From: a virus
Lineage: Duplodnaviria; Caudoviricetes
IMG/VR virus record: IMGVR_UViG_2974602183_000001
Coordinates: 48,107 to 112,106 of that record
Length of the DNA: 64,000 nucleotides
Strand: one strand, 5' to 3'
The position numbers and the translations under genes are program-made. Below the pieces are notes generated by a model that was given only the letters and a program-made list of their open reading frames with translations, searched no databases and was not told where the DNA came from. Below are positions 3,768-64,000 of this stretch, piece after piece. Every line of letters starts with the position of its first letter. The stretch's first letter is position 1.

Positions 3768-5204
3768 TTAAAGGTGCTCGTCAGCAAATTTAGCTAGGCG
3801 AGAGCGGTGTACTCCACCTAGTGTAATCACCTTGGCGAACGGTTCTCCATGGAATTTTTCGGTAGTACAGGCTAGTGCCGAAGTTCTTGGGGTTACAATT
3901 GGAGAGTCAATCTGATTTAGGGAGCCCATTAGGACAACCTTACAGTACTCACCCGCACGGGAGATTATGGTTTTAACTTGTGACTGAGTTAGGTTTTGAA
4001 TTTCGTCTATAATGAAGACTTTGTGAACGATAGAACGGCCACGCATAAAGTTCAGCGCTTTAGCTTGGATGAACGCATCACCACCTTGCTCGTCAGTTGG
4101 AGTATCAGTTGAGCTAACAATGGAGTTATTAGGGTGTAGCTTCATGTTCTTGGTTACTCGTGCCAGGTGCTCTAAGTTATCAGTAACACCACTTAACCAC
4201 GGTTTGGTCTTCTCAGACTCATTACCAGGTAAGAAACCAATATCGTCGAACTGAGAGTGCATGCTTCGGGAAACGATAACGTCGTAGTGACGGTAGCCAC
4301 GTTTTCCTTTAACCATCTCTACTGCTGCTGCCATAGCTAGCAAAGTCTTACCAGAACCTGCGGCACCGTTAATAATCACAATGTCTAGTTCAGGGTCTAG
4401 TAGGGCGTCTAGGGCAATGGCTTGGTAAAAGTCTTTAGGAACAATACCAGAAGCCTTGCGGTTCAGGAATTGTCCAGCGTTTACGAAAGTAAATTCGAGG
4501 TACATACCATCTTCGTAGCGAGAATCGCCCTCTACAGGCCCCTCTAGCTGAGCGAAGATACCGTCTTCCTCGTTGATTAACCAATCGTTGATACCGAAAG
4601 GTTCATCTCCCAGTAATTCTTCGATTACTGAGGTTTTAATTAGGGTGCGACCGCAAGATTTTGAGATAACGTCATCGTTACCTACAGTGCTTAGCCAGCC
4701 GTCTGGCACTTCAAAGTAACCACGAGGTAATAGGTCAGGGTCTTGAACCACTACATCATTACGATACTCTTGAACTTGTTGTACGCCTGCGCCCCTAGCC
4801 TTTAAGCGCATGCAAACATCGTTAGTTACGAGAACAGGTGAGCCCTTGAAAGCTTCTGAGCCTTCGGCTGGTTCTTGCTGATGAATCGTTGCATTGATAA
4901 TTGCATCGTCCGGACAAGTAACTTTAATGGCTTCAGGGACACCGATGTTAGGTAAAACGAATAGTCGTCCACCTGAGTTCATTTCAACGCCGTCCTCAAT
5001 AGCATCCATATCTCGGATGATTGAGTCTAGGGTACGGATGACAGCTCGGGCGTCGCGGGCTACATCTCTGTCACTTGACTTCTGTCGGTCTAGCTCCTCT
5101 AGTACAGTCATTGGGATTGCTACGTTATGCTCCTCAAACTTAAGAACAGCATGAGGGTCAGAAAGTAGTACGTTGGTATCTAGTATATATAGTTTTTGTG
5201 ACAT
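3768..5204 (-). CDS. phoH: PIN domain-PhoH family ATPase
   Basis: PIN motifs ILDTNVL, VLEELD, VTNDVCMR. Walker A GAAGSGKT, IGFLPG, FMRGRS, IIDEIQN, HRSRLA. Confidence 0.95.
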   Translation of the reverse strand: MSQKLYILDTNVLLSDPHAVLKFEEHNVAIPMTVLEELDRQKSSDRDVARDARAVIRTLDSIIRDMDAIEDGVEMNSGGRLFVLPNIGVPEAIKVTCPDDAIINATIHQQEPAEGSEAFKGSPVLVTNDVCMRLKARGAGVQQVQEYRNDVVVQDPDLLPRGYFEVPDGWLSTVGNDDVISKSCGRTLIKTSVIEELLGDEPFGINDWLINEEDGIFAQLEGPVEGDSRYEDGMYLEFTFVNAGQFLNRKASGIVPKDFYQAIALDALLDPELDIVIINGAAGSGKTLLAMAAAVEMVKGKRGYRHYDVIVSRSMHSQFDDIGFLPGNESEKTKPWLSGVTDNLEHLARVTKNMKLHPNNSIVSSTDTPTDEQGGDAFIQAKALNFMRGRSIVHKVFIIDEIQNLTQSQVKTIISRAGEYCKVVLMGSLNQIDSPIVTPRTSALACTTEKFHGEPFAKVITLGGVHRSRLAKFADEHL

Positions 5205-5911: not shown

Positions 5912-6085
5912 ATATATCTATTCTCTAAAAGGTCTGGACAACCTTTCCCTCAAGTACGCTGGTACTTCTTTAATAAGAGAACTCCTATATACCCTTTAAT
6001 TAGGGTATTCTTAAATGTTCGGTTCTGAGCATTTAAGAATACTTTAAGAAAGTAAGTCTTAGCAGCACTATGTCTTAAAAGGCGC

Positions 6086-6254
6086 GACTATCACTTTGTA
6101 GCCTCAATCCTCGGATTGTGTGAGTCAGTTAACTTCTGTCGACGTGTGGCTTGTAAAGGACTTTATCACCAAGTACGTAACTCCCTGCTTAAATGCAAGA
6201 CTATCACTTTGTAGCCTCAATCCTCGGATTGTGTGAGTCAGTTAACTTCTGTCG
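6086..6254. repeat. Two identical 56-bp direct repeats (6086-6141, 6199-6254)
   Basis: GACTATCACTTTGTAGCCTCAATCCTCGGATTGTGTGAGTCAGTTAACTTCTGTCG twice, period 113 bp. Confidence 0.95.
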
Positions 6255-6509: not shown

Positions 6510-9500
6510 GTGTTTACCTTTATAGCACAGGTAGAGAACGAAACCGCTCCAGAAGCTTCATCCTACGGATGGGGTCAAAATCGTAAAAAGTACCTGACCA
6601 AGGTATGGCACTCCCCTACAAAAACAACAGATATTTATTTAGCAAAGCATTTTGATGTCGTGGAAGAAGTAACTCCTGCAAGTATGGAGGAGTTACGCAC
6701 ACTTGTACTAAAGTACTCCCAAGACCCTAATGTTTGTATGCTACAGCATGCTCTAGCGGAAGGAGCACCACGAAAAAACATTCGCCGTAACAAGGAAACT
6801 TTCAGTGTAGTACCAAAGAGCAAATTCATGGTATTCGATATTGATAGTTTTCCTAGGCCAGAGCACATAGACCCTCTAGATATCCACCAACAGGCAAAGT
6901 ATGTCCTAGAACTACTGTCAGAACGGTTCCCTGTATACTTCGATAAGAAGTGTGGATACATTGCTAGGGGCTCTAGTTCCGCAGGTATTAAGACAGACAC
7001 CATCCGAATGCACTTGTACTTGGAGAACACGGTTCCTGTAAATACAAAGCAGCTAGACACTATAGCTGACGAGGTAAACGAAGTCTTTAACGAAGAATTC
7101 AAATGCGACTTATTCGATGACTCTCTTTACACTCGTGCCCACATACTGTACACGGCAGACCCTATATTTGAGGGTTGCATGGAAGACCCTTTTGGTGTGA
7201 TGCCACGAACAGTATTCTACAAATCAAGAGTTACGGCATCAATACCACCAACTACTGAGGAGAAGGAGCGTGTGAAAACAGCAACACTAACCGAAGAAGA
7301 CCTAGAGAGCATTAAAAGGTTCCAAGGCACAGACATAATTACACCTCCAGTCCGTCGAGTGCTAGACGACATCGAGGAAAACCCTGATAACGTCTATACC
7401 AAAAAAGCACCTCGACTATTCTTCTTGGCAATGGAGGATGGTATAGGATTCGAGCCGCTAAAAGAAGCATTTACTATTGCTATGCAAGACCACCCTAAGA
7501 TTGTCTCAGGGGAGAGAAGCATCGACGACTACTTAAAAGCGGCCATGGAATTCTGTTTCCAAACAATCAAATCTCGCGCCATACGCACCATTCCAGATAA
7601 GATAGACATTCGAATCAAACCATATGAGGAAATCCCTCCGGAGGTTCGAAAAGACATCTTAACTGATTGGCCAGTAGAGAAACTGTATCCTGACGGTGCA
7701 GGAACGGATAACGGCTACCTGTACATCCCAGACATGCCCCCGGTGGGCAAACTTACGTTCTGGAAGGCATCCCTCGGAACTGGTAAGACTACGGCACTTC
7801 AACGTCTAGTTTTAGGTGACGAGATTTTAGGCATCAAGCCAAAGTTTCATGGGCGTATGTTAGCAGTAACTAACACCGTATCTCTAGTAGATGGCAACGC
7901 CGCCAAGTTGGGTGCCCCAACTGATAAGGCGTACTTAGACCCTGCTCACCGAGATTCTTTCCGCCAGAACCCTAATGGACGTATGTCTACTACAATCCAC
8001 TCTTTGTGGAGATTTAAGGAAATGGCTGAGGAAGGTGCGATAGACTTTGTATTCATTGATGAATGCGATGCTGTAATGGATACTTTGCTTAACGCATCAG
8101 CGGTTATTATGAAAGAAAGGGCTAAGTGTATTGACGCTCTTAGTACTATTCTTCGCAGAGCTAAGTATGTGGTTCTAGCAGATGGTGACATTAGTGAAGA
8201 AACCATGTTCTCATACTTTGCACTCTCGGATAAGGAAGTAGCAGCAGTTGATTACAAATTTAACAAGCTAGAAGGCAGCAAAGCTTACGAGTGTAAGAAA
8301 GAAGAAACCGTATGGTTATCAGGAGTTCACGCAAACCTAGACGAAGGCTTGAAAGTTCTAGTGGTATCAGACCTAGGGCCGAAGGCAATCAATGAAAGAG
8401 TTCGTGGACTAGAAATGTTACATCCTGGCCACGTAATCAAGGGTGTGCATTCAGAGTCTACAAAAGACGAAGATATACGAGATATTCTAGAGAACACAAA
8501 CGCTGCGTTAGCTCAGTACAACGTTGATTGTTTAGTGTGTTCTCCATCCGTCGTATCGGGAGTAGACTTCCATTACTTTGATGTTGTAGCTATGATTACT
8601 AACACAAAGATTGCACCGCCTAACCTAAGATTCCAGGCCTTGCGACGTTGTCGCAAACCTAATAAAGAGTACTGGATTTACACAGACCCAGATACTTCTA
8701 ACTTCTCTACAGGGTACTTCCGTGCGGGGAACACGTACCCAAGTCTGGAAGACTTAATGCGTGAAAAATTCGCACTTCGTAAAAATGCAGAGTTCTCTGG
8801 ATTTAAGTCAAACCTACGATTCATGCTAATGGACCAAGGGTGTGAAGTAGTTGTGGATGACTTGTTTGAGGCAGGGCCAGGGGAGACTCTAGAGACCACT
8901 GTTAAGGACATGTGTGGAGAAGGTGCGAAAGCTGCGGAGCGTGAAGCGATGATTTACGCTATCTTAATGTCTAGAGAAGACCACTTCCCAAGACGCTATA
9001 ACAATGCTTTCGAAGTAAAACAACAAATCGCACACTATTACGAGCTTCCTAGTGTTGATGCTATCTCGTACGACCACGTAGACATGTATATTGACCAAGA
9101 TATTCATACCAAGATGGCTAACTTAGCTGAAGTAGTACGTGGGGGTCTGTACGGTCTGATGAAGGTCAACGCAAGCACATTGGAACGTTTTACTAAGTTC
9201 CTCCGTGTTCACGCTATTCAATGGTATAATGCCACAGGCGAGAACGCCTTCACAGGTTACGGAAGAAAAATGAACATGCGTAACGCTAAATATCAGGCTA
9301 GCCGCATAGGGTTAGTTATTGATATAGAAGACAAAGGCGTGGAGCCTAATTGGGAGCAGTTGCATGACTGGGCTCGTAAGTACTACGAGTATGAAGAGTT
9401 AGCAATCCCTAAAGAGTTCTTGACCGCAGAAGAGAAAGCTAAACTAGCGGAAGCAGCTAGTGATTTGAATCATAAACTACAGCGAGAGGAAGAAGCTAGC

Positions 9501-9548
9501 GATGACTACGGAAGCCTAAGCTGGGTAAACGTTAAGGGGTTCTCATGA
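6510..9548 (+). CDS. obp: Replication origin-binding protein (N-terminal AEP primase-like domain plus UL9-like SF2 helicase)
   Basis: FMVFDID and RMHLY primase-like motifs; KASLGTGKT, FIDECD, SGVDF, QALRRCR helicase motifs. GTG start with GGAGG RBS; T5 synteny. Confidence 0.85.
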   Translation: MFTFIAQVENETAPEASSYGWGQNRKKYLTKVWHSPTKTTDIYLAKHFDVVEEVTPASMEELRTLVLKYSQDPNVCMLQHALAEGAPRKNIRRNKETFSVVPKSKFMVFDIDSFPRPEHIDPLDIHQQAKYVLELLSERFPVYFDKKCGYIARGSSSAGIKTDTIRMHLYLENTVPVNTKQLDTIADEVNEVFNEEFKCDLFDDSLYTRAHILYTADPIFEGCMEDPFGVMPRTVFYKSRVTASIPPTTEEKERVKTATLTEEDLESIKRFQGTDIITPPVRRVLDDIEENPDNVYTKKAPRLFFLAMEDGIGFEPLKEAFTIAMQDHPKIVSGERSIDDYLKAAMEFCFQTIKSRAIRTIPDKIDIRIKPYEEIPPEVRKDILTDWPVEKLYPDGAGTDNGYLYIPDMPPVGKLTFWKASLGTGKTTALQRLVLGDEILGIKPKFHGRMLAVTNTVSLVDGNAAKLGAPTDKAYLDPAHRDSFRQNPNGRMSTTIHSLWRFKEMAEEGAIDFVFIDECDAVMDTLLNASAVIMKERAKCIDALSTILRRAKYVVLADGDISEETMFSYFALSDKEVAAVDYKFNKLEGSKAYECKKEETVWLSGVHANLDEGLKVLVVSDLGPKAINERVRGLEMLHPGHVIKGVHSESTKDEDIRDILENTNAALAQYNVDCLVCSPSVVSGVDFHYFDVVAMITNTKIAPPNLRFQALRRCRKPNKEYWIYTDPDTSNFSTGYFRAGNTYPSLEDLMREKFALRKNAEFSGFKSNLRFMLMDQGCEVVVDDLFEAGPGETLETTVKDMCGEGAKAAEREAMIYAILMSREDHFPRRYNNAFEVKQQIAHYYELPSVDAISYDHVDMYIDQDIHTKMANLAEVVRGGLYGLMKVNASTLERFTKFLRVHAIQWYNATGENAFTGYGRKMNMRNAKYQASRIGLVIDIEDKGVEPNWEQLHDWARKYYEYEELAIPKEFLTAEEKAKLAEAASDLNHKLQREEEASDDYGSLSWVNVKGFS

Positions 9549-9847
9549 TATCTAGAAAGATAAGAAGACGCATAGACGAAAATAGGAATCTAGAAAAGTC
9601 TAGGCAGGTAGAAGCTGCTAAGCGGGCGTATAGGGAGATAGTGCTAGCTCTAGGCGAAGAAAAGGTAAAGTTCTTAGTTGGCAGGTACACTATGTATAGT
9701 GAGTCGGATATTAAATATGTCCGACAAATTTTAAGATACTTAGGGGTGTCCGCAAAAGTTTACGTGGTTCCTATAGAAGGAAGGCTAATGGACTGTAGAA
9801 ACGTGATAACAAGTACAGGCTTTTCCATAACGGTACAGTATGGCTAA
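9545..9847 (+). CDS. Hypothetical basic protein
   Basis: ATGA overlap with the upstream gene. Confidence 0.75.
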   Translation: MISRKIRRRIDENRNLEKSRQVEAAKRAYREIVLALGEEKVKFLVGRYTMYSESDIKYVRQILRYLGVSAKVYVVPIEGRLMDCRNVITSTGFSITVQYG

Positions 9848-48097: not shown

Positions 48098-48694
48098 TTA
48101 AGCCTTCCTATACATGTTAAGTATGTTCTCAATATGCTTTGGCATATTGTTTAGGCGTACCTTGGTAGTAGACTGACCTTGGTTAACCACTGTTTTATTG
48201 AAATTCTTACGGTCAATCCAGTAGTCTAGAAGCATAAAGCCGGCTAACTTAATATCAGCAGACGCCTGGATTAGGTCTACATCGTAGGTAACGGTCATAA
48301 TATATGCCTTATCTAGTGTAGGAAACACAGTAAGCTTACCTAACCTAGGGTCGGCATACCAGTCGTCCGCTCCGAGAACTTTGTTCTCTGTTTCGGGAGC
48401 CCCTGTTCTTCGTAACTTGACCTCTGTAACTGCCACTTCCACATCTTGCAACATGAACTCCTGTTGGTGTGGAGAAGTAACTTGAGTTTCCGTAGCACCT
48501 ACTAGTACATCCGTGACAAAAGGAAAAGTACTATTACTGTTAGCTACTGGGGCTTCTTCGAACTCGTAACCTAAGTAAGTCTGTATGGCAGAGGCTACAG
48601 CAGGCATTAGTTGCTCTATTTTTGCATCCTGAGTTGGTGATGCTATAGCAGCGTATTCTTTATACTCTTCCAAGCTAAACAATAGAGTTGCCAT
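48098..48694 (-). CDS. Head completion / head-tail adaptor (T5 p144-like)
   Basis: LEEYKEY, DIKLAGFMLLDYW, PKHIENILNMYR. Confidence 0.85.
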   Translation of the reverse strand: MATLLFSLEEYKEYAAIASPTQDAKIEQLMPAVASAIQTYLGYEFEEAPVANSNSTFPFVTDVLVGATETQVTSPHQQEFMLQDVEVAVTEVKLRRTGAPETENKVLGADDWYADPRLGKLTVFPTLDKAYIMTVTYDVDLIQASADIKLAGFMLLDYWIDRKNFNKTVVNQGQSTTKVRLNNMPKHIENILNMYRKA

Positions 48695-54184: not shown

Positions 54185-54655
54185 TCATGATTTCCCGTTA
54201 ATCAGAGAACCTAGAAGACCGTTCATCCCCTCGGAGCCTGAAAAGTTATTCTGAATGTTAGTTTGATTTGCAGGGGCTTTCTGTTTGTTTTGGGCCTCTA
54301 TAAGCTTAATCTCCATGTTAAGCTCAGCCATCTTCATTTTATGTACTTTCTCTAGCACAGATAGTAGGTCATCTTCCGATACTATGCCGGATTCTTCTGC
54401 CTCTGCGATTTTTCTATTAATTATTTCATCTAGGAGCCCGAATAGTCTGTCTCGGTTCCTAAATCCCGTTTCCATGAACACAGAGTTTATGTAGTGCCTA
54501 ACCTCGGGGGTCTTCATTTGGGCCGCTACAACCTCCACACCCATGCCTAGTTTTTCTGCGGCTGCCGCTACAGTGCCTGTCTCAAGATAGGCCTCAGCAA
54601 CTAACAACCCCTCCGGAGCCATTATCTCCGGAAGTAGTTTATCTTCATCTGACAT
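54185..54655 (-). CDS. terS: Terminase small subunit
   Basis: APEGL.VAEAYL HTH, GFRNR, NIQNN; T5 synteny. Confidence 0.88.
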   Translation of the reverse strand: MSDEDKLLPEIMAPEGLLVAEAYLETGTVAAAAEKLGMGVEVVAAQMKTPEVRHYINSVFMETGFRNRDRLFGLLDEIINRKIAEAEESGIVSEDDLLSVLEKVHKMKMAELNMEIKLIEAQNKQKAPANQTNIQNNFSGSEGMNGLLGSLINGKS

Positions 54656-54739
54656 CGAGTACTCCTCATCAAAATTTTTGCAAATCTTGTGATTATTATA
54701 TAATATAAATTCGCCGATGCAAAGATGATTTTGTTATGG

Positions 54740-54930
54740 GGTTGCCGAACCTTGCCGAGTACGAAATTTCACATAATAAAATTTTTGAACTGCCGTTTTT
54801 GCCGATACCTGCCGAGTAGTCTGTTTCTATGAGCACTGGGTATATTAGCACCGAGTACGCCTTACTTCAAAAATCACATAAGTATATTAGCACCGATAAC
54901 ATACCAAACCAAAATTCACATAAGTAGTAC
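54740..54930. repeat. Short dispersed repeats near the putative terminal-repeat boundary
   Basis: TATATTAGCACCGA x2, TCACATAA x3, several TGCCGA. Confidence 0.7.
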
Positions 54931-55054
54931 GTGAAGGGGGGTCGCCACGTGCCCTAAATGAGAACAAGTCTCATTACCGCCTACCCTGTACAGGTCTAGT
55001 CTGTTTTTGGAGGCAATCGCTGTACATCATGCGATTGCCTGCCCTGCCGTTATC

Positions 55055-55693
55055 TTATGCACTAGCACCTAACAGTTGACCAGTTAGCGATTCGATGAGA
55101 GATTCACTTTCATTATACGCCAGTTCCTCCATATCGTTAAAGCCTTGCTGATATGCAATTTCAAGCATAAGGTTTAAGTTAGTGGCATCAATAGCAGTAA
55201 AGCCTCTCGCTTTAGCTGCTTTAAGCACGCCCTGATGGTCGTCGTACATGATAAATTCGTGGTTGGTTCCGAAACGCTCAAGCAACATGTCAAAGTAGGC
55301 ACCCTTGTAGGCTGCATCACCTGAGTTATAGATACGCTGCACTTGCTCGGCTGTGAAGTGTTTATGTAGTTGGTCACGGCTAAGGACAAGAGGAACACGC
55401 AAACCGTTTTTGCGTAAATAGTAGTAATCACTATTAGCCATGTGTCGAGCCGTACAGATAACAACAATTTCGCCCTTAGATATTAGGGCTTTCATGTAAT
55501 CGGCTAGTGGCATTAGCTTGTCACGCATAACCTTATTGTGTACACACGCTTCTTTGCGGTACTTGTCAAGGTCTAAATCACCGCCCTCACGTAAACAAGG
55601 CTCTACACGTTCAAAGCTGTCTATAGTGGTTCCGTCTAGGTCAAAAATGTGAACGGTTTGCATTGATAAGGCTAATAGGTTTAGTTTATTCAT
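55055..55693 (-). CDS. dmp: Deoxynucleoside-5'-monophosphatase (HAD family)
   Basis: FDLDGT, CTAR, MYDD motifs; first pre-early gene position. Confidence 0.88.
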   Translation of the reverse strand: MNKLNLLALSMQTVHIFDLDGTTIDSFERVEPCLREGGDLDLDKYRKEACVHNKVMRDKLMPLADYMKALISKGEIVVICTARHMANSDYYYLRKNGLRVPLVLSRDQLHKHFTAEQVQRIYNSGDAAYKGAYFDMLLERFGTNHEFIMYDDHQGVLKAAKARGFTAIDATNLNLMLEIAYQQGFNDMEELAYNESESLIESLTGQLLGASA

Positions 55694-55769
55694 TGGTATT
55701 TCCTCGCATGTTTGCGGATTAGTTAGGTGTGACGGGCGTCACGTTTTTGCGCCCGTCACGGTTTGGGGT

Positions 55770-57437
55770 TTAGTATTGGTACTCGCCCACTTTGTACATA
55801 GGCACTAGCTGATGTGTAGAGTTAGGATAAATAACGGCGTTAGCTCTGTCCCAAGTTGTACCGCCTTTGTTATAGCCCATTTCCATCGAACCCGTTACAC
55901 CTACTACAACCGTGTTATTATCTTCAAACGGTGAATGTGTATGCCCTGTTACAGTCTTAATGCGCATTTTCTTAAAACTAACAGCCGAACCACGGGCACC
56001 GCCTGTACCTACATGACCATGTATTGATACATCATAACCGAATGCGAGGCGTTGCTCGTCAATCTTACCAAACTCAATGTTACTAGAAAGTTCTGGCAAA
56101 CGGTCTGCTAAGGCTGCAAAGGCTAAGTCCATTTTCGCAAGGTCGTTAAATGTTCCGTTATCCATCGCTTCAATGTAAGCAAGCATTAGGGCATGGTATG
56201 TGCGGGCGTTTTTCGGGTCTTTTCGTACATCAAAGCGATTATCACGCAACCAAGAATCTAGGGCTAGGTCGTGGTTTGACTCAACAATAAAGACGGGCGC
56301 AATTTCTGCCAAACGGTTTAGGTAGTTGATTACATCCGTTAAATCTTCAATTACGGCTCTATCTTGCATCTGGTATAAGAACGTCCAATCTTCACGGTTA
56401 TGATGGTTACGGCTCATAAAGTCTAGCGCATCATGTACAACTATCATCTTAGGGTTAACACCCTTAGCCCAGTCAGTTGCACGGCTGAATGAGTCGTCGC
56501 ACATCTTTTCGCAGTGTAAATCACCTAGCACGATTACCGGTTGATTTTCGAATACATCATTATAGGCTTTGATTGAGCCGTCAGGGAAGAACACCGAGCC
56601 GTTATCAATAATTACGCCGTTTTCATCTGATACCAATCTACGGTGAGTAACGTAGCCGTCACGCACTTCGATTAGTAGACCGCCGTAACAATGCTCGGAT
56701 TCTGCCTCCGCACCTGCACGGCTGTCGGTGTAGTGTTTGAGCGTACAAGCTGCCGTTGTATATACCCAACGGTGCGAGCCGTTTTTCTGTCTAGATAGTG
56801 TTTTTGTTTGTCGTCTAGGGCTAGCAACTACCGTGATTGACTCGCCAGTATTTAATCGCTCGGCTGCGTTGATAGGCTGTTTAGCAGTAGGCAAAATTTG
56901 CGCACTGTTTGCCAGTAATACATTACCTTCACCGCCTAACCAAGTGTCAACATAGGTTAATAGGTGCGCTTTTACATCCGCATGGAAGCTAGGCTTTTTG
57001 CGCTCCAAACCTTGCAAAGTTGTTGTATATTTAATAGGCATGATACCAAATTCAGCACCATAGTTTTTTGCCATAGATAGCAAGGTTTTCAGCACTGGAT
57101 GGGGATGGGTATTGTTCTGTCCTGCCGTAATGATATAAATACCGTCGTCTAGGTCGTCAGTTTCACGCCCTGACATCGAACCTGCGAAAGTTGGTTCGAT
57201 GTCCTCTTTCGCCTGTTTGGTATGCGATTTAGTTTGGGATTTTGGAGCCGGACGGTTGTCGTCCAGAAAGTCGATTATCTCCCTAGAATGTACATCCTCG
57301 CCCAGCTCCAAATCGTCACGGATTGCAATTGCTACCTCTCGGCGCTTGGAGTCTAGGCGTTTGCCCCAAAAGTTTTCGCCCTTAGCTAGCTTTAGGATTG
57401 CAGTTGCATTATCAGTGATTTTGTTAGAAATAGTCAT
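55770..57437 (-). CDS. A1: A1 protein (host DNA degradation / second-step transfer), metallophosphoesterase fold
   Basis: 555 aa; GDLH, HDALD, SNHD, IHGH, GHTHSP motifs. Confidence 0.92.
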   Translation of the reverse strand: MTISNKITDNATAILKLAKGENFWGKRLDSKRREVAIAIRDDLELGEDVHSREIIDFLDDNRPAPKSQTKSHTKQAKEDIEPTFAGSMSGRETDDLDDGIYIITAGQNNTHPHPVLKTLLSMAKNYGAEFGIMPIKYTTTLQGLERKKPSFHADVKAHLLTYVDTWLGGEGNVLLANSAQILPTAKQPINAAERLNTGESITVVASPRRQTKTLSRQKNGSHRWVYTTAACTLKHYTDSRAGAEAESEHCYGGLLIEVRDGYVTHRRLVSDENGVIIDNGSVFFPDGSIKAYNDVFENQPVIVLGDLHCEKMCDDSFSRATDWAKGVNPKMIVVHDALDFMSRNHHNREDWTFLYQMQDRAVIEDLTDVINYLNRLAEIAPVFIVESNHDLALDSWLRDNRFDVRKDPKNARTYHALMLAYIEAMDNGTFNDLAKMDLAFAALADRLPELSSNIEFGKIDEQRLAFGYDVSIHGHVGTGGARGSAVSFKKMRIKTVTGHTHSPFEDNNTVVVGVTGSMEMGYNKGGTTWDRANAVIYPNSTHQLVPMYKVGEYQY

Positions 57438-57472
57438 TAGAAATATCCTCGCTTATAGCGGTTAGTGGTGTA

Positions 57473-57513
57473 AATTTACACTGTAAATTGATGGTCAATT
57501 TACAGTGTAAATT
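57473..57513. repeat. Perfect 19-bp inverted repeat with 3-nt loop
   Basis: AATTTACACTGTAAATTGA-tgg-TCAATTTACAGTGTAAATT. Confidence 0.95.
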
Positions 57514-57594
57514 GCCCCCGTTTGGAGGCAATCTGTTAGAATAGGTTAGGTAGCACAAACGCACCTATCAGCACGCCTAGCACTAACCAGTTCA

Positions 57595-58080
57595 TTAGGC
57601 TTTCGCCGTTTCTTGGCGTGGAACTTTCGCTTCTTCGTCAGCTTGAGTGTCGTCAGGGTTAACAATCACTTGCTTACCGCTTAGGGCTTCCGCCAGCTCT
57701 ACGATTAGCTCCAAGTCGGAACCCACAGCTTGCTCTAGTGACTCAAACTTGCGTCCTGTCACTTCCACGCCGTTAGCGGTAGCTAGGTTTTGCAATGCAC
57801 GGATATAGTGAATTTTTTGGGTTTTCACTTTGCCACGTACTGAACGAGCTTTCGCAGCTTTTTGGTAAACTGGTTCGCCTTCTTCGTCTTTAAGCGTGGA
57901 CAGTTTAGAACGTACCGATTGAGCGGATTTAGCCCCGACCGCTTTCGCAATCTTGCCTAGCTCAACATTTGTATTAGCTGTTTCTAAACCAACTTCCGCC
58001 ACAAGTTCACGGTATAGAGTTGTTGCTTGAGATTCAGTTTCTTTGTTCCATTCAAAACCTGCTACTGTTTGCTTAGTCAT
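57595..58080 (-). CDS. A2: A2 DNA-binding protein
   Basis: IAKAVGAKSAQSVRSKL..VYQK HTH, FESLE; upstream of A1. Confidence 0.85.
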   Translation of the reverse strand: MTKQTVAGFEWNKETESQATTLYRELVAEVGLETANTNVELGKIAKAVGAKSAQSVRSKLSTLKDEEGEPVYQKAAKARSVRGKVKTQKIHYIRALQNLATANGVEVTGRKFESLEQAVGSDLELIVELAEALSGKQVIVNPDDTQADEEAKVPRQETAKA

Positions 58081-58211
58081 AATTGTTTCCTCTTTTCAGA
58101 TTTGCCGGATGTTATGAGCACCCGAGTAATGGGACAATTCCCCGAACTAGGCACTTGGTTAAATACCTAGTCAGTGAACTATTCGCTACCTGATAGAAAA
58201 CATATCCAAAT

Positions 58212-58223
58212 TGTTAAAGAGCG
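58212..58223 (-). promoter_or_regulatory. boxA antitermination element
   Basis: CGCTCTTTAACA(ATTT) on the minus strand, compared with rrn boxA TGCTCTTTAACA; just downstream of a promoter. Confidence 0.75.
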
Positions 58224-58244
58224 TATTCCCTTGGGAACGTTGTT

Positions 58245-58273
58245 AGTATCTCAAAAGCCGTTTATTGTGTCAA
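58245..58273 (-). promoter_or_regulatory. Strong pre-early promoter for A2-A1-dmp
   Basis: TTGACA-17-GATACT with an upstream A/T tract. Confidence 0.8.
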
Positions 58274-58399
58274 CTACTTTTTTGAAACTTTTTCGAAAGG
58301 CTTTTCGGCTTTTCTGTCCCGCCTTGTTGCTGCGGTATGTGTATATAATAGCAAATTGAGTCAATGAGTCTAATCGTTTAAATCTTTAAAAATCCCTAG

Positions 58400-59110
58400 A
58401 TTGATAGGTTTTGGCTATCAGCGATTTTTGTCTATAAATATAAGGAAACGGGCGCGCGTCTATCATAGCTAGGAATAAATATCAAATATTTTGGTGAAAA
58501 GTGTGATATAGCTCCAACCCAAAAATCATGCCAACTTGAAAAACACTGTATAAATATACATGCCTCTAAAACGCTCTGTGTGCGTTTCTAAGCGATTTTA
58601 GCCTCTACCCTTGCAATGGTATTCCCAAACAGTTTATGCACTTTTGGGTATTTTTCTGCATATTTATTCACTTTAGTGAATAGAGTGAGAACGAGCTTCT
58701 TTGAAAAGTCAAGGACAAATTTCAAACTCAAAAATCGTCGCAGATGAGAATCCATATTATATATAAATGATAAGGATTCTCATTCGCAGATGAGAACCTT
58801 TTGCATTTGGGTCGAAAAATCGTTGGCACGCCTTTTGCAAGGCAAAATGTATGCCAAGCCTTTTGTTCACAACTTTATGCACATTAGCAAGTTCTAATAA
58901 TACTGGTTATGTACTGTATATCCACAACTTATCAACAGGCTAAGTAAAGTTATCCACCCTAAAAAGGCACTTATAAATTACGGAATGCCGTTTCTAGGCT
59001 GTAGAATCCATTCTAAGCGGTTATCCACAACCTAGACATATTAAAGTAAGGCTTCTTTCTAAAACCTCTCAGAAACGCTTACAGAGCTTATACCCGTTTT
59101 GCTGGTGGTT
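58400..59110. promoter_or_regulatory. Cluster A of host-regulator-like sites (Fur, sigma54, DnaA, LexA, ArgR, CRP, LysR-type)
   Basis: Examples: AATGATAAGGATTCTCATT 58766, TTGGCACGCCTTTTGC 58823, TTATCCACA 59021. Confidence 0.75.
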
Positions 59111-59182
59111 ATAACAAAATGTTATTAGACAAATGGGCTAGAATTGCTACTATATAAGGGAAGGCGGCAAGGAGGACACAAC

Positions 59183-59302
59183 ATGTACCGTATTCACTTT
59201 GATGTTATTTGGTGGTGTCTCAATAAAGAGACGGGCGAGTATACTACAGCTAGTAGTATGCAGAAACTATTTGACAAGGTAGGTATAACATGTTTGAACT
59301 AA
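59183..59302 (+). CDS. 39-aa pre-early protein (not in ORF track)
   Basis: AGGAGG RBS; MYRIHFDVIWWCLNKETGEYTTASSMQKLFDKVGITCLN. Confidence 0.7.
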   Translation: MYRIHFDVIWWCLNKETGEYTTASSMQKLFDKVGITCLN

Positions 59303-59364
59303 TTGCTTGTGTTATGTTTATTGCTGCTATTGCAGTAGGTCTTTACCCCCATTGGAGATGTTAA
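59290..59364 (+). CDS. 24-aa hydrophobic peptide (not in ORF track)
   Basis: MFELIACVMFIAAIAVGLYPHWRC; AGGTAGG upstream; fills the gap between neighbours. Confidence 0.5.
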   Translation: MFELIACVMFIAAIAVGLYPHWRC

Positions 59365-59366
59365 AA

Positions 59367-59660
59367 ATGTTTGTATTAAGTGAAAATGATGTTCGTAAAA
59401 CTGGTTTTATGGAAGCTAGAGAGTTAAAATTTGGTGACACGTTTATACAAAAAGATGAAGAATTAACATTAGAAAATGTTAAAATTGCAGTGTGTCACTA
59501 TGCCGACGATGACGACGACATAGTATATATGCCTTTAGTACCTAAAGAAACACACAACTTACAAGAATTTGGAGATATTCGTTCTGATAACTATATCAGT
59601 AGTTCGGGCAACGTTTGCCTAGTGAAAGTGGTAGTCGAGGGAGTGTCTAAAAATGTTTAA
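59367..59660 (+). CDS. Pre-early hypothetical protein (paralog 1)
   Basis: Start moved to the ATG after GGAG; similar to 59968-60264. Confidence 0.8.
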   Translation: MFVLSENDVRKTGFMEARELKFGDTFIQKDEELTLENVKIAVCHYADDDDDIVYMPLVPKETHNLQEFGDIRSDNYISSSGNVCLVKVVVEGVSKNV

Positions 59661-59958
59661 CCAAAAAGATAAGACTAGTCTAGTCACTCTTGACTATATA
59701 CTGGCGGAATTGTCAATGCTATCCGCAACGGATGACCCATCAGACACGGTATGGTATATCGACTCGGATGAGTCCTTGTTGATTACGGTACATCCTAAAT
59801 ACGGGCTAGTGTTCTACAACGATGAGATGCAAACTATAGGTATCTACGACAGAGAGCAAGAAAGCGAGATGCTAAACCTACTAGACGACTGGTCTATTTA
59901 TAGTGACTCTAAGGTGTGGCGTGAAATTGGTATAGACCAAATCGACTACGTAGTGTAG
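59653..59958 (+). CDS. Pre-early acidic hypothetical protein
   Basis: GAGGGAG RBS, overlaps the upstream ORF. Confidence 0.8.
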   Translation: MFNQKDKTSLVTLDYILAELSMLSATDDPSDTVWYIDSDESLLITVHPKYGLVFYNDEMQTIGIYDREQESEMLNLLDDWSIYSDSKVWREIGIDQIDYVV

Positions 59959-59967
59959 GGGTAGGAT

Positions 59968-60264
59968 ATGATTGTTCACAAAAAAGACAAAAAAGACAAA
60001 AAAGAGTTCTTGGCAAGCGATTTGCTACAAGGTCAAGCCTTTGTTATCCGAGGTGAGGATATAGAGCTAAAAAATGTTAAGATAGCTCTATACACCTATT
60101 CAGAGACGGATGAGGATGTAGTTTACTTGCCCATCAATAGTGCATCGGCACACAAAACAGACTGTTTAAGGTTCCAAGATAATTACTATATAAGCGAGGA
60201 TGCCAAGGTAGTGCCTGTGGTTCTAGAAGTAGAAGACGTGTATCCTGACAAAAATGTGAGCTAG
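59968..60264 (+). CDS. Pre-early hypothetical protein (paralog 2)
   Basis: LKNVKIA / DVVYLP / YIS shared with 59367-59660. Confidence 0.8.
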   Translation: MIVHKKDKKDKKEFLASDLLQGQAFVIRGEDIELKNVKIALYTYSETDEDVVYLPINSASAHKTDCLRFQDNYYISEDAKVVPVVLEVEDVYPDKNVS

Positions 60265-60298
60265 GTCACTTGACTAGGGCAACGGATTGTCCTATTAT
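60255..60298 (+). promoter_or_regulatory. sigma70 promoter with abutting CRP-like site
   Basis: TGTGA-gctagg-TCACT (60255-60270), then TTGACT-17-TATTAT. Confidence 0.65.
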
Positions 60299-60359
60299 AT
60301 ACCCATACCAGCGAGGTATGACCGACCGGACGGATTTTCCGAGATTTTGGAGATTTACC

Positions 60360-60563
60360 ATGAAAGCATCTAACCTAGTAGCCCTAGCCAATATCATTGA
60401 GACTAACGCCAGTGATTATGCTGTAATCTCAATTACTGACAATGCAATAGATGGTCTAACTGTTGTTTTGGAGCGTGTGGATTCAGGTCACGTCCTGACT
60501 GTACAAGGCGACACACTAAGCGAGCTAGAACAAGCTATCATTAACGGCGTTCAACCATTCTAA
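60360..60563 (+). CDS. Pre-early hypothetical protein (67 aa)
   Basis: Start moved to MKASNL after GGAG. Confidence 0.75.
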   Translation: MKASNLVALANIIETNASDYAVISITDNAIDGLTVVLERVDSGHVLTVQGDTLSELEQAIINGVQPF

Positions 60564-60619
60564 CCAACTAGGGCGACTAAGGTCGCCCACAACTAACCGC
60601 TAAGAGCGAGGAAAAGACC

Positions 60620-60955
60620 ATGTATACATATAACGCTATAGTAGACGACCCAACTCATCGTTGGTATGGTATGTTAGTTAAAGTAGAAGTAACAGACCTG
60701 GACTCAATGGTTCACAAATGTATCCGTGAAGGTCGCCAGTCGTACGTAGATTGCAAGCACTTGAAAAAGCGTAGTGCAGTCAATAACCACGTAGTAGGGG
60801 AACCACGTTGCGGTATCCTATTCAATAAGGGCGCTATTTGGTTAGGCGGTCATTACTCCCCATTCAATCGCCGTTGGTGTATCAACCTAGTACCGTGCAT
60901 CACAATTTGGTTCACCCTGCGAGACGGTAAAGCACCGCAAAGGGCTAAGTTTTGA
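60620..60955 (+). CDS. Pre-early hypothetical protein
   Basis: GAGGA RBS; Trp-rich C-terminus WLGGHYSPFNRRWCINLVPC. Confidence 0.8.
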   Translation: MYTYNAIVDDPTHRWYGMLVKVEVTDLDSMVHKCIREGRQSYVDCKHLKKRSAVNNHVVGEPRCGILFNKGAIWLGGHYSPFNRRWCINLVPCITIWFTLRDGKAPQRAKF

Positions 60956-61084
60956 GAGCCGTATTTGTTCTAGGGGCATTGTTTGGGGTAGTCAGAATTT
61001 ATTTTGGCACGGAACTTGCCCACACGTTTCAAGGCGTACTAGTGATTTTATGTAGCTTGGTCGCCTTGGGGGTATATTACATAG

Positions 61085-61273
61085 ATGGAGAGTAGACTAA
61101 TGTTAGCTTACCAAATAATCTACTACCTAAAAGTTGATGTACTCGGCGGAGGTATCCGCCGATTTACTAAGGCGTTCCCTAGCCGAGAGCTACGGGACGA
61201 AGTATATTATCGCATAGTGACCAGTAACCCTAGAATTGTTGGTCTGGTTGAACTTAAAACAGTGAGGCAATAA
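61085..61273 (+). CDS. Pre-early hypothetical protein
   Basis: ORF; the true start may be the ATG at 61100 after GGAG. Confidence 0.65.
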   Translation: MESRLMLAYQIIYYLKVDVLGGGIRRFTKAFPSRELRDEVYYRIVTSNPRIVGLVELKTVRQ

Positions 61274-61275
61274 TC

Positions 61276-61503
61276 ATGCCAAAATTAATCCATATCGTTG
61301 CACTAGATTTTGAGCTTGTGGAAATTTCAGACTACACTTGGGAAATCTGCGAGGAAGAAATTCACAACGTACTAGATAATATTTTTGTTGAGCACATCCC
61401 CAAGGGTGACTTTTCCGAAGGCTTCCTAGAATTGTTGCGTGAAGACCTAAAGATGACCAAGGATGAGTTTGACAAAGTCACCCACCTTGTAAGTGTTAGC
61501 TAG
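61276..61503 (+). CDS. Pre-early acidic hypothetical protein
   Basis: GAGG RBS; followed by a terminator. Confidence 0.7.
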   Translation: MPKLIHIVALDFELVEISDYTWEICEEEIHNVLDNIFVEHIPKGDFSEGFLELLREDLKMTKDEFDKVTHLVSVS

Positions 61504-61516
61504 CAATAATCATACC

Positions 61517-61541
61517 AATCCCGCCTTGTGTGGGATTTTTT
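61517..61541 (+). terminator. Terminator ending the rightward pre-early operon
   Basis: AATCCCGC-cttgt-GTGGGATTTTTT. Confidence 0.75.
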
Positions 61542-61555
61542 GTATCCAGAGCCTA

Positions 61556-62016
61556 ATTGAGAATGCTTCTCATTTGACCGCGCCCGTCCGGCAATGAGAA
61601 TGATTATCATTTGTGTTACGTGCGTGTGCAAGGCTGCTAGTGGATGGTAGGCTTGCTTTAGTACCTAGGGCGGTGAAACTCGGCTTACAGAGCGTTACAG
61701 TGCCTCTCAAGGGCACCCAGAATATTGCACTACGTGCAAGGTACTGTTTATTTATACAGTGGTATAAGCTGTGGATAACTGTGTGGATAAGTCGTCAGAG
61801 AGCCTTACAGCGATAAAGCAAAAATCGTGCCATGTGGATAACAAAATTCATGCCATATTTTATATTGTCCATCTGTGCAGTAAACTAGATGATAATGCTT
61901 CTCATTCAACCTAGGGAATGCGAATGAGAATGCTTCGCATTCGTACTCGCAGGGGCAAATGAGAATTATTCGCATTTGCAAATGATTATCATTTCGCTCT
62001 TTGAATAATTCTCATT
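61556..62016. promoter_or_regulatory. Cluster B of host-regulator-like sites (7 Fur, 3 DnaA, LexA, sigma54)
   Basis: Examples: AATGAGAATGATTATCATT 61593, CTGTTTATTTATACAG 61744, TGTGGATAA 61770/61782/61833. Confidence 0.8.
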
Positions 62017-62048
62017 CAACTTCTCTGGTACATTGATTCTGCGCCCCA

Positions 62049-62527
62049 GGGAGTGCGAAATCTATGAGTGCAAAAGTTACGTGTGAGTGCGGATTCTATG
62101 TGAGTGCGGATTCTATGTGAGTGCGGATTCTATTGGAAGCTTCGTGGGTTACGACGGCTACGCCGTCGAGCTACATGGGCCCTGGGGCGTTTTTGGAGGT
62201 AATCGGCAAAAACTTGAAATAATCGCTTGACAATCGGGTTTCGGTGAGATTCTGCGCCCTTGGGGCCTCAAAAGCCGCGCCACCTGTGGAGTACAGGAGC
62301 TGGCAGCTCCCCAGGATTAGGTACATATAGAATTCAACCTGGGGCTCAGGGGGTTCGACGGCAAAGCCGTCGGGTTCCTGTAATTTAAGTGCCTGTAATT
62401 TAAGTGCCTGTAATTACAATAAGGCTAGGGATAGGTTGGCTAGGGAAAGTTATGTGAGCTAGGGTAGATTTTTGAATGGGTTTGTGAGTGCGGATTCTAG
62501 GGAAAGTTATGTGAGTGCGGATTCTAT
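62049..62527. repeat. Repeat and hairpin field (injection-stop-signal-like or repeat boundary)
   Basis: 17-bp GTGAGTGCGGATTCTAT x3 tandem (62083-62133) plus copies at 62484 and 62511; 15-bp CCTGTAATTTAAGTG x2.6 (62377-62415); two CGACGGC-N3-GCCGTCG hairpins. Confidence 0.9.
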
Positions 62528-62967
62528 GTAGAGGTTATTAAGTTTTAGAAGCTAGGAATGGATTATAGGGAAAGATACTAGGAAGGGATTACGGGGCGGG
62601 CAAGGCTTTTGTTTTGTAAAAGTCTCTTGTGGGAATTAAGGTAGTCTGTTTTTGAGGAGTCTCTTTTTAGTAAAAGATGACTTTTTAAGGTTCGAGTGGA
62701 ATTTAGGGTATTAGAGTCCCCACCAAAAGATTAAGAAGTTATTAAAAGATATTTAGTAGTATTTTATTGCTCGCTTTTTTGCGAATACTACTAGGATTTT
62801 TGTTGTTTCCATCTCTCCTTTGCTGCCGCCTCCCGAATGGAAACAAGAATCCTAGGCATTCGCGAAGCGAGCTAGGGTTTTTAGAAAGGAGGTAAATTAA
62901 AACCTCCTAGTCTCTAAAAGTTCCATATGATTATAACATATTTTGAAGTTTTTCCAACCGACTTTTT

Positions 62968-63669
62968 CTACTCTGGGGTGAGTTTGATGGTCATTCCGAT
63001 TTTTGGTTTCTCATTCATAAGCTCCTTAGTCTCGCGAAGCTTGGCCGGCTTGCCCTGCCTAAAATCTTCAATCTGTTCGGCTCTAGAAGCTTTAGTTAGT
63101 ATAGGGTGCTTAAGTCCTGGATTGCCATTGCACAAATTGAATTGGCAAGTAGGCTCAAACTCGCGAGTCTTAAGTTCTTCTACCAATTGCATGATATGCA
63201 CTGGTTTTTCATATATTATCTCGTACAACACAGCGAGGACAGGAGTATTCCAAGTATTAGAAAGCTCAGAGTTCTTCTTCCATTTGCCCCAGTTAGGTTT
63301 GTAGCCTAACTCTGGCCATTGAGGTAGTTTTCTCACAAACTCCTTAATGTGTGTAGTATCTCCACTAGAGAAGGAGAGTTCAGTGCCTACGTCAGACTTG
63401 CCACGTCCTAGACCTACAGACTCTGGATTCAGGAAGTAGTTATCACGTTCTTCGTGTAATGCCCAATACCTGCAAATGTACTCTATACCTCCCGGTGCAT
63501 TACCAAAGGAGAATTGCCAAGTACTTTGTGACTTGGCTAGTGACTGTTTTCCTCTCTTAGAGAACCCTAGTAACATTAAGTGTAGCTCCGTTAAAGGTAC
63601 CTCTCCAGTCTTGACTTGTTTTAGTGTTTCTTTTACTTTATGGTAAAGCGCGTGTCTATATTGTTCCAT
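62968..63669 (-). CDS. Hypothetical early protein (233 aa)
   Basis: GAGG RBS, long ORF. Confidence 0.8.
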   Translation of the reverse strand: MEQYRHALYHKVKETLKQVKTGEVPLTELHLMLLGFSKRGKQSLAKSQSTWQFSFGNAPGGIEYICRYWALHEERDNYFLNPESVGLGRGKSDVGTELSFSSGDTTHIKEFVRKLPQWPELGYKPNWGKWKKNSELSNTWNTPVLAVLYEIIYEKPVHIMQLVEELKTREFEPTCQFNLCNGNPGLKHPILTKASRAEQIEDFRQGKPAKLRETKELMNEKPKIGMTIKLTPE

Positions 63670-63678
63670 TGTTACCTC

Positions 63679-64000
63679 TTAAATATCTGCTGCTTGCTCG
63701 TCGTTGTAGTTCTTTGACTTTTGCATCATCTCATCACGCCTGTTCTTATCGCCCGCTTCTTTTTCACGGTCTACTAGGTCTTGTATAATAGCCTCGATAT
63801 CTTTGCGCTTAGTGAATGGGTTGTCCTTCTGCTCAAAGGATACTTTGGCACATTCCGCATCTTCCCAAGCTGAGTGGCCTTCCACTCCTAGGAAGCAACC
63901 AATACACTTTTCATCGGGGTGCATAGATTTAAATGATTTTCCATGAAACTGCTTCCATAGTCGCTCTAGTCGTAGGATTGTGTGGTAGTCTTTATTGGCT
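63679..64000 (-). CDS. Hypothetical protein, probably 5'-truncated by the window edge
   Basis: The frame of 63679-63924 stays open to the window end (ANKDYHTILRLERLWKQFHGKSFKSMHPDE...). Confidence 0.7.
   Translation of the reverse strand, partial: ANKDYHTILRLERLWKQFHGKSFKSMHPDEKCIGCFLGVEGHSAWEDAECAKVSFEQKDNPFTKRKDIEAIIQDLVDREKEAGDKNRRDEMMQKSKNYNDEQAADI

Follow-up and report, generated by a model that had tools for sequence, protein, structure and literature searches.

Fur-like boxes without a promoter beside LexA and DnaA boxes in the probable injection-stop region of a T5-like Vibrio phage

What could operators be for where there is no promoter to control? This question is raised by a 461-bp block (positions 61556 to 62016) in a 64,000-nucleotide stretch of viral DNA, the last 64 kb of the 112,106-bp IMG/VR record IMGVR_UViG_2974602183_000001 (its positions 48,107 to 112,106). 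The whole stretch was analysed and is called the window below. The block holds a run of palindromes that resemble the operator of the iron regulator Fur, with a LexA box and DnaA boxes among them. As explained below, it appears to correspond to the region of phage T5 where DNA injection pauses, and its palindromes may be Fur operators which the phage uses as DNA sites rather than as promoter switches.

Sites were scored by their mismatches to the 19-bp inverted repeat AATGATAATNATTATCATT, which is the published V. cholerae/Vibrio Fur box according to the available text of two studies (PMC7641913; PMC7536154). A rescan of the window against this sequence reproduced all ten box coordinates and the eight mismatch counts of the initial annotation. 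The two copies described there as weaker, at 58789 and 61998, are present with six mismatches each, and the right half-site of 61998 is perfect. The palindromes are listed here without a strand, together with a second, upstream module that is described further below.

54957 to 54975: outlying Fur-like palindrome with 4 mismatches, downstream of the deoxynucleoside-5'-monophosphatase gene (dmp) and 16 bp from the point where the record of Vibrio phage SJ1 ends
58742 to 58807: Fur-like part of the upstream module, the main box being 58766-58784 (2 mismatches) and the flanking copies, 58789 (6) among them, weaker
61556 to 61611: two Fur-like boxes, 61556-61574 (4 mismatches) and 61593-61611 (1), bracketing a GC-rich 17-mer at 61576-61592
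61888 to 62016: five Fur-like boxes, at 61888 (3 mismatches), 61923 (4), 61958 (3), 61975 (4) and 61998 (6)

In the window, one site has a single mismatch, one has two, two have three and four have four. With up to three mismatches, the four sites found compare with 0.03 expected, and none of 100 shuffles reaches four. With up to four mismatches, the eight sites compare with a mean of 0.63 and a maximum of 4 in 300 first-order Markov simulations of the 64-kb window. Six of these eight fall within 460 bp, a span into which no simulation put more than two, and the 461-bp block would be expected to hold 0.011 sites at its own composition. All eight lie between 54957 and 61993, in the presumed terminal-repeat part of the phage, while the remaining ~55 kb of the window contains no site with four mismatches or fewer. 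The cluster of Fur-like boxes is real and strongly non-random.

The surroundings of the block identify the kind of phage. Positions 61400 to 62700 are 89-94% identical to eight records, including the Vibrio phages vB_ValS_X1 (X1), VspSw_1 and SJ1. As these relatives are classed in the Demerecviridae, genus Pogseptimavirus, the window belongs to a T5-like Vibrio phage. The annotation of X1 names the neighbouring genes as terminase, dmp, A1 and a DNA-binding protein, and the genes and signals around the block are as follows (ORF, open reading frame).

55055 to 55693, minus strand: dmp, by X1 annotation
55770 to 57437, minus strand: A1, 555 amino acids, with 1130 homologous phage records
57595 to 58080, minus strand: A2-like gene, annotated as a DNA-binding protein in X1
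59144 to 61503, plus strand: small rightward ORFs, the pre-early operon
61504 to 62967: gene-free stretch, ending at a convergent ORF
61517 to 61547, plus strand: intrinsic terminator that ends the rightward pre-early operon, a stem-loop (61517-61537) with a T run
62968 to 63669, minus strand: next ORF past the block, converging on it

This order (terminase, dmp, A1, A2-like gene, divergent intergenic region, small rightward ORFs, terminator, long non-coding repeats) is that of the T5 left terminal repeat. The non-coding stretch follows the rightward pre-early operon, on the far side of which are dmp, A1 and A2; Repeat Region 3 of T5 has this position too. According to the available part of the Davison preprint (bioRxiv 10.1101/866236), Repeat Region 3 is held to contain the injection stop signal (iss). 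The block is therefore, with little doubt, the iss-equivalent region of a T5-like phage. In addition, the interval between A1 and the A2-like gene contains a perfect inverted repeat of 19 nt with a spacer of 3 nt (57473-57513), in the place occupied by 'palindrome B' in T5. A search of 54500-64000 against Rfam gave no match above threshold, and Pfam gave no match for the small pre-early ORFs.

The initial annotation had described the block as following a terminator and having no downstream gene, and both statements hold. The stem-loop and T run were recovered by a scan, the main block begins 19 bp past the terminator stem, and the next ORF is read on the opposite strand towards the block. A promoter scan, whose matches are consensus matches only, gave no promoter-like site above 9/12 in the block; the whole scanned region holds 18 such sites, compared with 11.2 +/- 3.3 in shuffles. 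An overlap with the -35/-10 of a regulated promoter, as expected of a Fur operator, is absent from the main block (61556-62016). The one exception is box 58766, which lies over a candidate leftward promoter, ATGAGA-16-TATAAT (58783 to 58756), that matches at 10/12 and reads towards the A2-A1-dmp operon. Judging from the sequence, the upstream module alone could have a classical repressor role. GAGAAT, the variant half-site of the phage boxes, is less -10-like than GATAAT, and this would suit operators that must not fire as promoters.

The earlier focus on iron was right about the Fur-like boxes and overlooked what surrounds them, i.e. LexA and DnaA boxes, as well as the presence of the same array in T5. 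The LexA (SOS) consensus is CTGT-N8-ACAG with an AT-rich spacer. The following elements were found around the Fur-like boxes, the LexA-type palindromes again being given without a strand.

58546 to 58561: LexA-like box of the upstream module (CTGT-N8-ACAT, 1 mismatch), the inverted partner of the 61744 box, in the divergent pre-early intergenic region
58875 to 59029, plus strand: five DnaA boxes belonging to the upstream module, exact at 59021 and with 1 mismatch each at 58875, 58918, 58929 and 58950
61744 to 61759: perfect LexA box, CTGTTTATTTATACAG (CTGT-N8-ACAG), the positional equivalent of T5 'palindrome D'
61770 to 61841, minus strand: DnaA boxes at 61770, 61782 and 61833, all three exact, with 3 bp between the first two
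62039 to 62044, plus strand: CTGCGC motif between the last Fur-like box and the first GTGC repeat, in a place matching T5 major nick 1 (7.9%, CCCTGCGC)
62053 to 62526, plus strand: GTGCRRAWYCKA, repeated six times on the same strand (0.2 copies would be expected per 64 kb) and corresponding to 'direct repeat D' of T5

The LexA box and the three DnaA boxes sit between the two Fur-like groups of the main block. The upstream module, in the divergent intergenic region, is inverted and consists of the LexA-like box at 58546, the Fur-like boxes at 58742-58807 and the plus-strand DnaA boxes at 58875-59029. Both the DnaA pair 3 bp apart, described for T5-like phages in the available part of the Davison preprint, and the inverted partner module upstream are features of the T5 type. 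Of 12 T5-like loci, which represent at least six lineages, 11 have a LexA box immediately next to DnaA boxes, usually in both inverted modules. These loci are the window, X1, SJ1, VspSw_1, T5, Salmonella phage 100268_sal2 (sal2, Epseptimavirus), Klebsiella phage KPN4, Thalassavirus GRLPWR, Chester and the Vibrio phages 70E37.1 and VCPH. The twelfth, Akh-2, has no LexA box beside its DnaA boxes, and its record ends 83 bp beyond them.

From its position, CTGCGC in the window would be a nick site; similar motifs were seen in sal2, 70E37.1, VCPH and GRLPWR. The GTGC repeats occur in eight of the ten T5-like loci scanned, with six copies in the window, nine in T5, nine in sal2, three in KPN4, five in GRLPWR, three in 70E37.1, four in VCPH and six in X1, and none in Chester and Akh-2 (both cut short). 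By sequence, the GTGCRRAWYCKA repeats are the better candidate site for a family-conserved phage protein such as A1 or A2.

The T5 record (AY587007.1) annotates this region as palindrome D, inverted repeats D'/C', direct repeats C, palindromes E-J, nick 1 and direct repeats D. Of these, palindrome D (9330-9349) matches the LexA-type pattern perfectly (box at 9332), and the inverted repeats D'/C' carry DnaA boxes. Direct repeats C and palindromes E-J (9473-9636), the positional equivalent of the five-box group of the window (61888-62016), are Fur-like. The best T5 copy, AATGAGAATCATTATCATT at 9577, has one mismatch and is the same variant as the best box of the window, while the A1 proteins of the two phages are only about 32% identical. 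The upstream module of T5 (6022-6152) likewise holds DnaA boxes and a second perfect LexA-type box (6135-6154), its Fur-like content being only a 4-mismatch site. Because of the LexA and DnaA neighbours and the same array in T5, the reading shifts from iron alone to a cluster for several host DNA-binding proteins.

Next, whole genomes were scanned for Fur-type sites with up to three mismatches and for LexA-type sites (CTGTAT-N4-ATACAG) with up to one mismatch.

T5: 10 Fur-type sites, five per repeat copy and none in the unique ~101 kb; two LexA-type sites per repeat copy and nowhere else
sal2: 11 Fur-type sites, five per repeat copy plus one; two exact LexA-type sites per repeat copy and three one-mismatch sites elsewhere
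X1: four Fur-type sites, all in the two modules; one LexA-type site
GRLPWR: no Fur-type site; three LexA-type sites per repeat copy
70E37.1: no Fur-type site; three LexA-type sites

A Fur-type site with two to three mismatches was also seen inside the dmp coding sequence of T5 (231-249), sal2 and KPN4, the T5 copy being 231 bp from the left genome end; dmp of the window has none.

According to the available parts of the BF23 paper, a 2026 T5 preprint and a 2026 PNAS paper, the T5 iss consists of repeats, palindromes and DnaA boxes of untested function. The published accounts, as far as available, name DnaA boxes only, and the function of the palindromes has been called impossible to guess. 'LexA', 'SOS' and 'Fur' are absent as whole words from the Davison preprint (10.1101/866236). 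A literature search gave no paper in which the T5 injection-stop region or cos is connected with Fur or LexA, and Davison 2015 or Heusterspreute 1987 could hold priority. As far as these searches reach, reading the palindromes as Fur and LexA operators is new, and priority elsewhere is possible.

The view that the boxes are Fur-type operators is supported by their agreement with the Vibrio consensus and by the places where their variant occurs in bacteria. GAGAAT/ATTCTC, which had been regarded as a natural variant, was indeed found in bacterial chromosomes directly before iron-uptake genes. One genome per prokaryote species was scanned for exact AATGAGAATNATTMTCATT, giving at least 120 stretches of which 80 were listed. 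The following figures refer to these listed matches, among which there is no Vibrio. They comprise 82 sites, 65 with an ORF of at least 100 amino acids starting within 350 bp. Thirty of the 65 ORFs were annotated, nearest first and mostly the longer ones, with no random-site control, and 14 of the 30 encode iron-uptake proteins (seven TonB-dependent receptors, two FeoB, two Peripla_BP_2, FecCD, FecR and NEAT). Five more encode ZnuA or FbpA-like binding proteins, bringing the count to 19 of 30, and the remaining eleven are other proteins or have no Pfam match. Iron-uptake families make up a small share of any genome. The exact K/M-degenerate consensus was found in 87 of 301 genomes of one order, with at most three sites each, compared with two genomes for a reversed control pattern.

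As reported in the available text of an electrophoretic mobility shift study with Vibrionaceae Fur (PMC7536154), T12, T13, C16, A8 and T9 of the box matter for binding. Among 16 non-overlapping phage sites (eight from the window, three from T5 and five from sal2; both strands, n=32), these contact positions are kept in 29, 31, 29, 29 and 26 of 32 cases, respectively. Variation is concentrated at the centre and at positions 6, 11, 14 and 15, most deviations being at 6 and 14. Among four close relatives, in-box substitutions are mostly toggles, G/T at position 6 and A/C at position 14, and one relative has lost exactly one box. From these sequence features, Fur probably binds the block.

What would Fur do there? 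The explanation that we prefer, tentatively and at a little less than even confidence, is that the block consists of genuine promoter-less Fur operators, set in a module for host factors (Fur, LexA and DnaA) at the boundary between first-step and second-step transfer. All three proteins would already be in the cell when the phage DNA arrives. As the last first-step DNA enters, holo-Fur, LexA and DnaA would load onto the block, and the resulting nucleoprotein complex at the entry point could help to hold or mark the DNA during the pause, after which A1 and A2 would let the remaining DNA enter. Occupancy would follow the iron status through Fur, DNA damage through LexA and the state of DnaA. In the DnaA-box model of the T5 stop, as given in the available part of Davison (bioRxiv 10.1101/866236), a pre-existing host DNA-binding protein on iss causes the stop. 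Conserved LexA and DnaA consensus sites stand at the end of the first-step DNA, with Fur arrays beside them in three genera. The present proposal is an extension of that model. That binding of Fur, LexA and DnaA actually contributes to the injection pause is a conjecture, and a rather doubtful one. The initial annotation had suggested an iron-sensing checkpoint on DNA entry; the place fits the T5 iss position, and the restriction to iron gives way to a reading with several proteins.

A number of observations weigh against this explanation. Six of the eight window sites carry three or four mismatches, and the phage motif has a bias of its own, with G over T at position 6 (19 vs 9 of 32) and C/G at the centre (28/32), which could indicate a different protein. 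The single CTGT-N8-ACAG in the window is at chance level (1 found, 1.06 expected), so that the LexA box has weight solely because it is conserved across T5-like loci. GRLPWR has no Fur-type site with up to three mismatches in its whole genome despite an A1 that is 80% identical to that of the window, the iss region of KPN4 has no Fur-like site, and 70E37.1 and VCPH each have a single box, the slot being filled by other repeat arrays. As the array is not universal in the family, the Fur boxes cannot be essential for two-step injection; judged by its distribution, the Fur array is an exchangeable part and no family requirement. It is also not obvious how binding of DNA inside the cell would halt entry, and the case for Fur binding is one of sequence likeness.

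The inner end of the terminal repeat is a further difficulty. In the SJ1 record, which is marked unverified, the repeat corresponds to 54941-61583 of the window, ending inside the GC-rich 17-mer GACCGCGCCCGTCCGGC, and this would leave most of the block outside the repeat. Contigs from public runs break at 62104-62111, inside 17-bp tandem repeats. Their depth goes from ~47 to 23 in one run and from ~110 to 48 in another; depth is no copy number, and these values are at most a hint of a repeat end near 62.1 kb, in conflict with the SJ1 record. A low-depth contig in one further run joins 54981 to 61593. In T5, sal2 and GRLPWR, the iss region is inside the terminal repeat.

The arrays standing in place of the Fur-like boxes are GGGATCACTAATATAG units in GRLPWR (locus L005, 380-480), GCAACTGTTGC-type palindromes in VCPH (locus L133, 2900-3050) and ACAATAATATAATA units in 70E37.1 (locus L006, 3840-4030). 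The GC-rich 17-mer (61576-61592), which directly follows the first Fur-like box, is also present in VCPH (L133, about 2525-2541) and in 70E37.1 (L006, about 4335-4355, minus strand), and in a looser form in GRLPWR.

Could the palindromes be bound by a phage protein instead, such as A2, A1, a terminase subunit or an unknown pre-early product, the likeness to Fur being coincidence or mimicry? This is the alternative that survives best, and it is still unlikely. It would account for the preferences of the motif itself (G at position 6, C/G at the centre) and for a slot filled by different arrays in Thalassavirus, VCPH and 70E37.1, as expected for genus-specific proteins. A2 is annotated as a DNA-binding protein, and that of the window is nearer to A2 of T5 and sal2 (38% and 41% identity) than to that of GRLPWR (32%); the values for 70E37.1 and KPN4 are 46% and 38%. 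Covariation of the array with A2, suggested by the first three comparisons, was not borne out by a table of eight phages. A2 of KPN4 is 66% identical to that of T5, yet its iss region lacks the array, and 70E37.1 has the A2 closest to that of the window, yet a single box; therefore, the array does not track A2. Against a phage protein also stand the near-identical motif in phages whose A1 and A2 are 32-41% identical, the adjoining consensus sites of two other host proteins, the identical 19-mers before iron genes in chromosomes, and similar arrays in unrelated viral contigs with different terminases. A search for a Fur homologue encoded by the phage found none, while all control genomes matched. 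The pre-early genes themselves form a mosaic. A1 of the window is 80% identical to that of GRLPWR and A2 only 32%, and Chester has the same A2 as GRLPWR with an A1 only 38% identical to that of GRLPWR.

A second alternative, less probable than a phage protein, is that the array has its function at the end of the genome, where Fur, or else the bare sequence, would be an architectural element in packaging, in end protection or in the cutting or duplication of the terminal repeat. In T5, whose genome is 121,752 bp long, the right-repeat array (121086-121249) stops ~0.5 kb short of the right end, and box 54957 of the window lies close to the end of the SJ1 record, as listed above. Other viral genomes point in the same direction. 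A scan of IMG/VR for the same 19-mer listed 80 loci, to which the following counts refer. At least three sites with up to four mismatches occur within 600 bp in 26 of the 80 loci, two of them T5-like, and all 18 clusters checked lie in ORF-free gaps of at least 567 bp. Large ORFs were annotated in 16 of the other 24 cluster loci. In nine of these 16 contigs (L134, L136, L142, L151, L187, L192, L200, L202 and L209; 29-53% G+C, at least two TerL types), the cluster is 0.4-2.0 kb upstream of a terminase gene, a count without a base rate for a nearby terminase and with a choice of large ORFs that favours TerL. One further cluster is beside an A1-type protein and six are beside other or unknown genes. 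A site lies within 300 bp of the contig end in 13 of 41 whole-contig loci, compared with 3.9 expected, an excess that could also arise where repeats break assemblies and so place arrays at contig ends. No Fur-like site is present in the nearest named relatives of contig L134, Alteromonas phage ZP6 and MW202510.1.

Phage lambda (NC_001416.1, 48,502 bp) has a single site with up to three mismatches (48450-48468, 2 mismatches), 34 bp from the right cohesive end and just before a cosQ-type GGGTCCT. In a lambdoid prophage (locus L255, 1802-1820), the corresponding position, upstream of nohD and about 220 bp before the small terminase gene, holds a 19-mer with no mismatch. This prophage was reached through one of 48 short, weak BLAST matches of the T5 array in E. 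coli genomes; one plasmid match precedes an autotransporter gene and is uninformative. The lambda, prophage and contig cases are post hoc, with no base-rate control. As a side observation, the 62-kb viral contig L154 (21% G+C) carries at 2215-2900 about eight tandem Fur boxes with a run of DnaA-box-like repeats immediately after them, and has an origin-like look.

The initial annotation had also proposed a Fur sponge, in which replicated genomes titrate Fur and derepress iron uptake for the iron-dependent ribonucleotide reductase NrdAB. Seven to ten boxes per genome in many copies would indeed make a large Fur sink, and the block has no promoter that needs repression. However, according to the available parts of the Davison preprint (10.1101/866236) and a 2026 preprint, the host DNA is degraded within minutes in T5 by pre-early functions needing A1, and host expression is shut off in the pre-early phase of T5-type phages. 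As the present phage keeps A1, A2 and dmp, little host transcription would be left to derepress. The sponge also fails to account for the LexA and DnaA boxes or for the constant position at the end of the first-step DNA, and relatives with an A1 80% identical manage without the array, so that this proposal is improbable. Equally improbable is transcription control, with Fur repressing a pre-early promoter upstream and acting as a roadblock or insulator behind the terminator downstream: box 58766 on its promoter-like site and the closeness of the main block to the terminator speak for it, but the promoter matches are by consensus only, the main block has neither a promoter-like site above background nor a downstream gene, and the T5 upstream module has LexA and DnaA boxes with only a 4-mismatch Fur-like site.

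A promoter-less host-factor module at the transfer boundary stays the preferred explanation of the block. A wider generalisation, which we regard as unlikely on present evidence, is that unrelated tailed phages build promoter-less Fur operators at genome ends and entry-pause sites, T5-like phages adding LexA and DnaA, with the regulators as structural parts that report the state of the cell. The examples behind it are the T5-like iss, the cosQ side of lambda-type cos and non-coding DNA upstream of the terminase in uncultured phages. If Fur sites do recur at phage genome ends, host regulators would serve as DNA sensors or scaffolds rather than as promoter switches, which would be a new usage, and iron availability would be linked to infection success in marine vibrios. 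On the wider reading, the phage would sense iron status, DNA damage and replication state as its DNA arrives or is cut. The stop of T5 after 8% of its DNA has been an open question since the 1960s, and the literature, in the parts available, still calls the host factor unknown. If the wider reading is true, the host factors holding T5 DNA at 8% would be Fur, LexA and DnaA. Reading LexA and Fur sites beside the DnaA boxes makes the T5 pause a question of host genetics in E. coli K-12.

Several known systems can be compared with the block. In the Fur titration assay, multicopy Fur boxes titrate Fur, which needs an intact, transcribing host chromosome. The block is similar in that many Fur boxes without a gene of their own could be a Fur sink, and different in that T5-type phages remove the host chromosome early. 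Compared with chromosomal Fur operators, the block has the same 19-bp inverted repeat, the same contact positions and overlapping or multiple sites, as found at strongly regulated promoters. In contrast, the main block is without a promoter or regulated gene, the G variant at position 6 is preferred, and the sites are packed far more densely than in chromosomes, where a genome holds 0-3 exact ones. In cosB of phage lambda, the site I1 for the host architectural protein IHF is built into a DNA-processing site of the phage, according to the available part of PMC4669245. There the role of IHF was shown by experiment, whereas that of Fur is conjecture, and IHF senses no metabolite; in both cases, however, a host protein site lies in non-coding phage DNA that is handled as DNA and not as a promoter.

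A further comparison is with Repeat Region 3/iss of T5 itself (Heusterspreute 1987; annotation of Wang 2005; Davison 2015 and 2020). The position after the rightward pre-early operon is the same, as is the order of parts (terminator, LexA-type palindrome, paired DnaA boxes, run of palindromes, CTGCGC and GTGC repeats, i.e. DRD in T5), and both phages have an inverted partner module in the divergent promoter region. The two differ in that the window shares no sequence homology with T5 outside the boxes, and in that its Fur-like boxes flank the LexA/DnaA core left and right and occur in the upstream module as well. Finally, whereas the Davison model uses DnaA alone, the loci compared here add a LexA box (11/12 loci) and, in three genera, Fur arrays.

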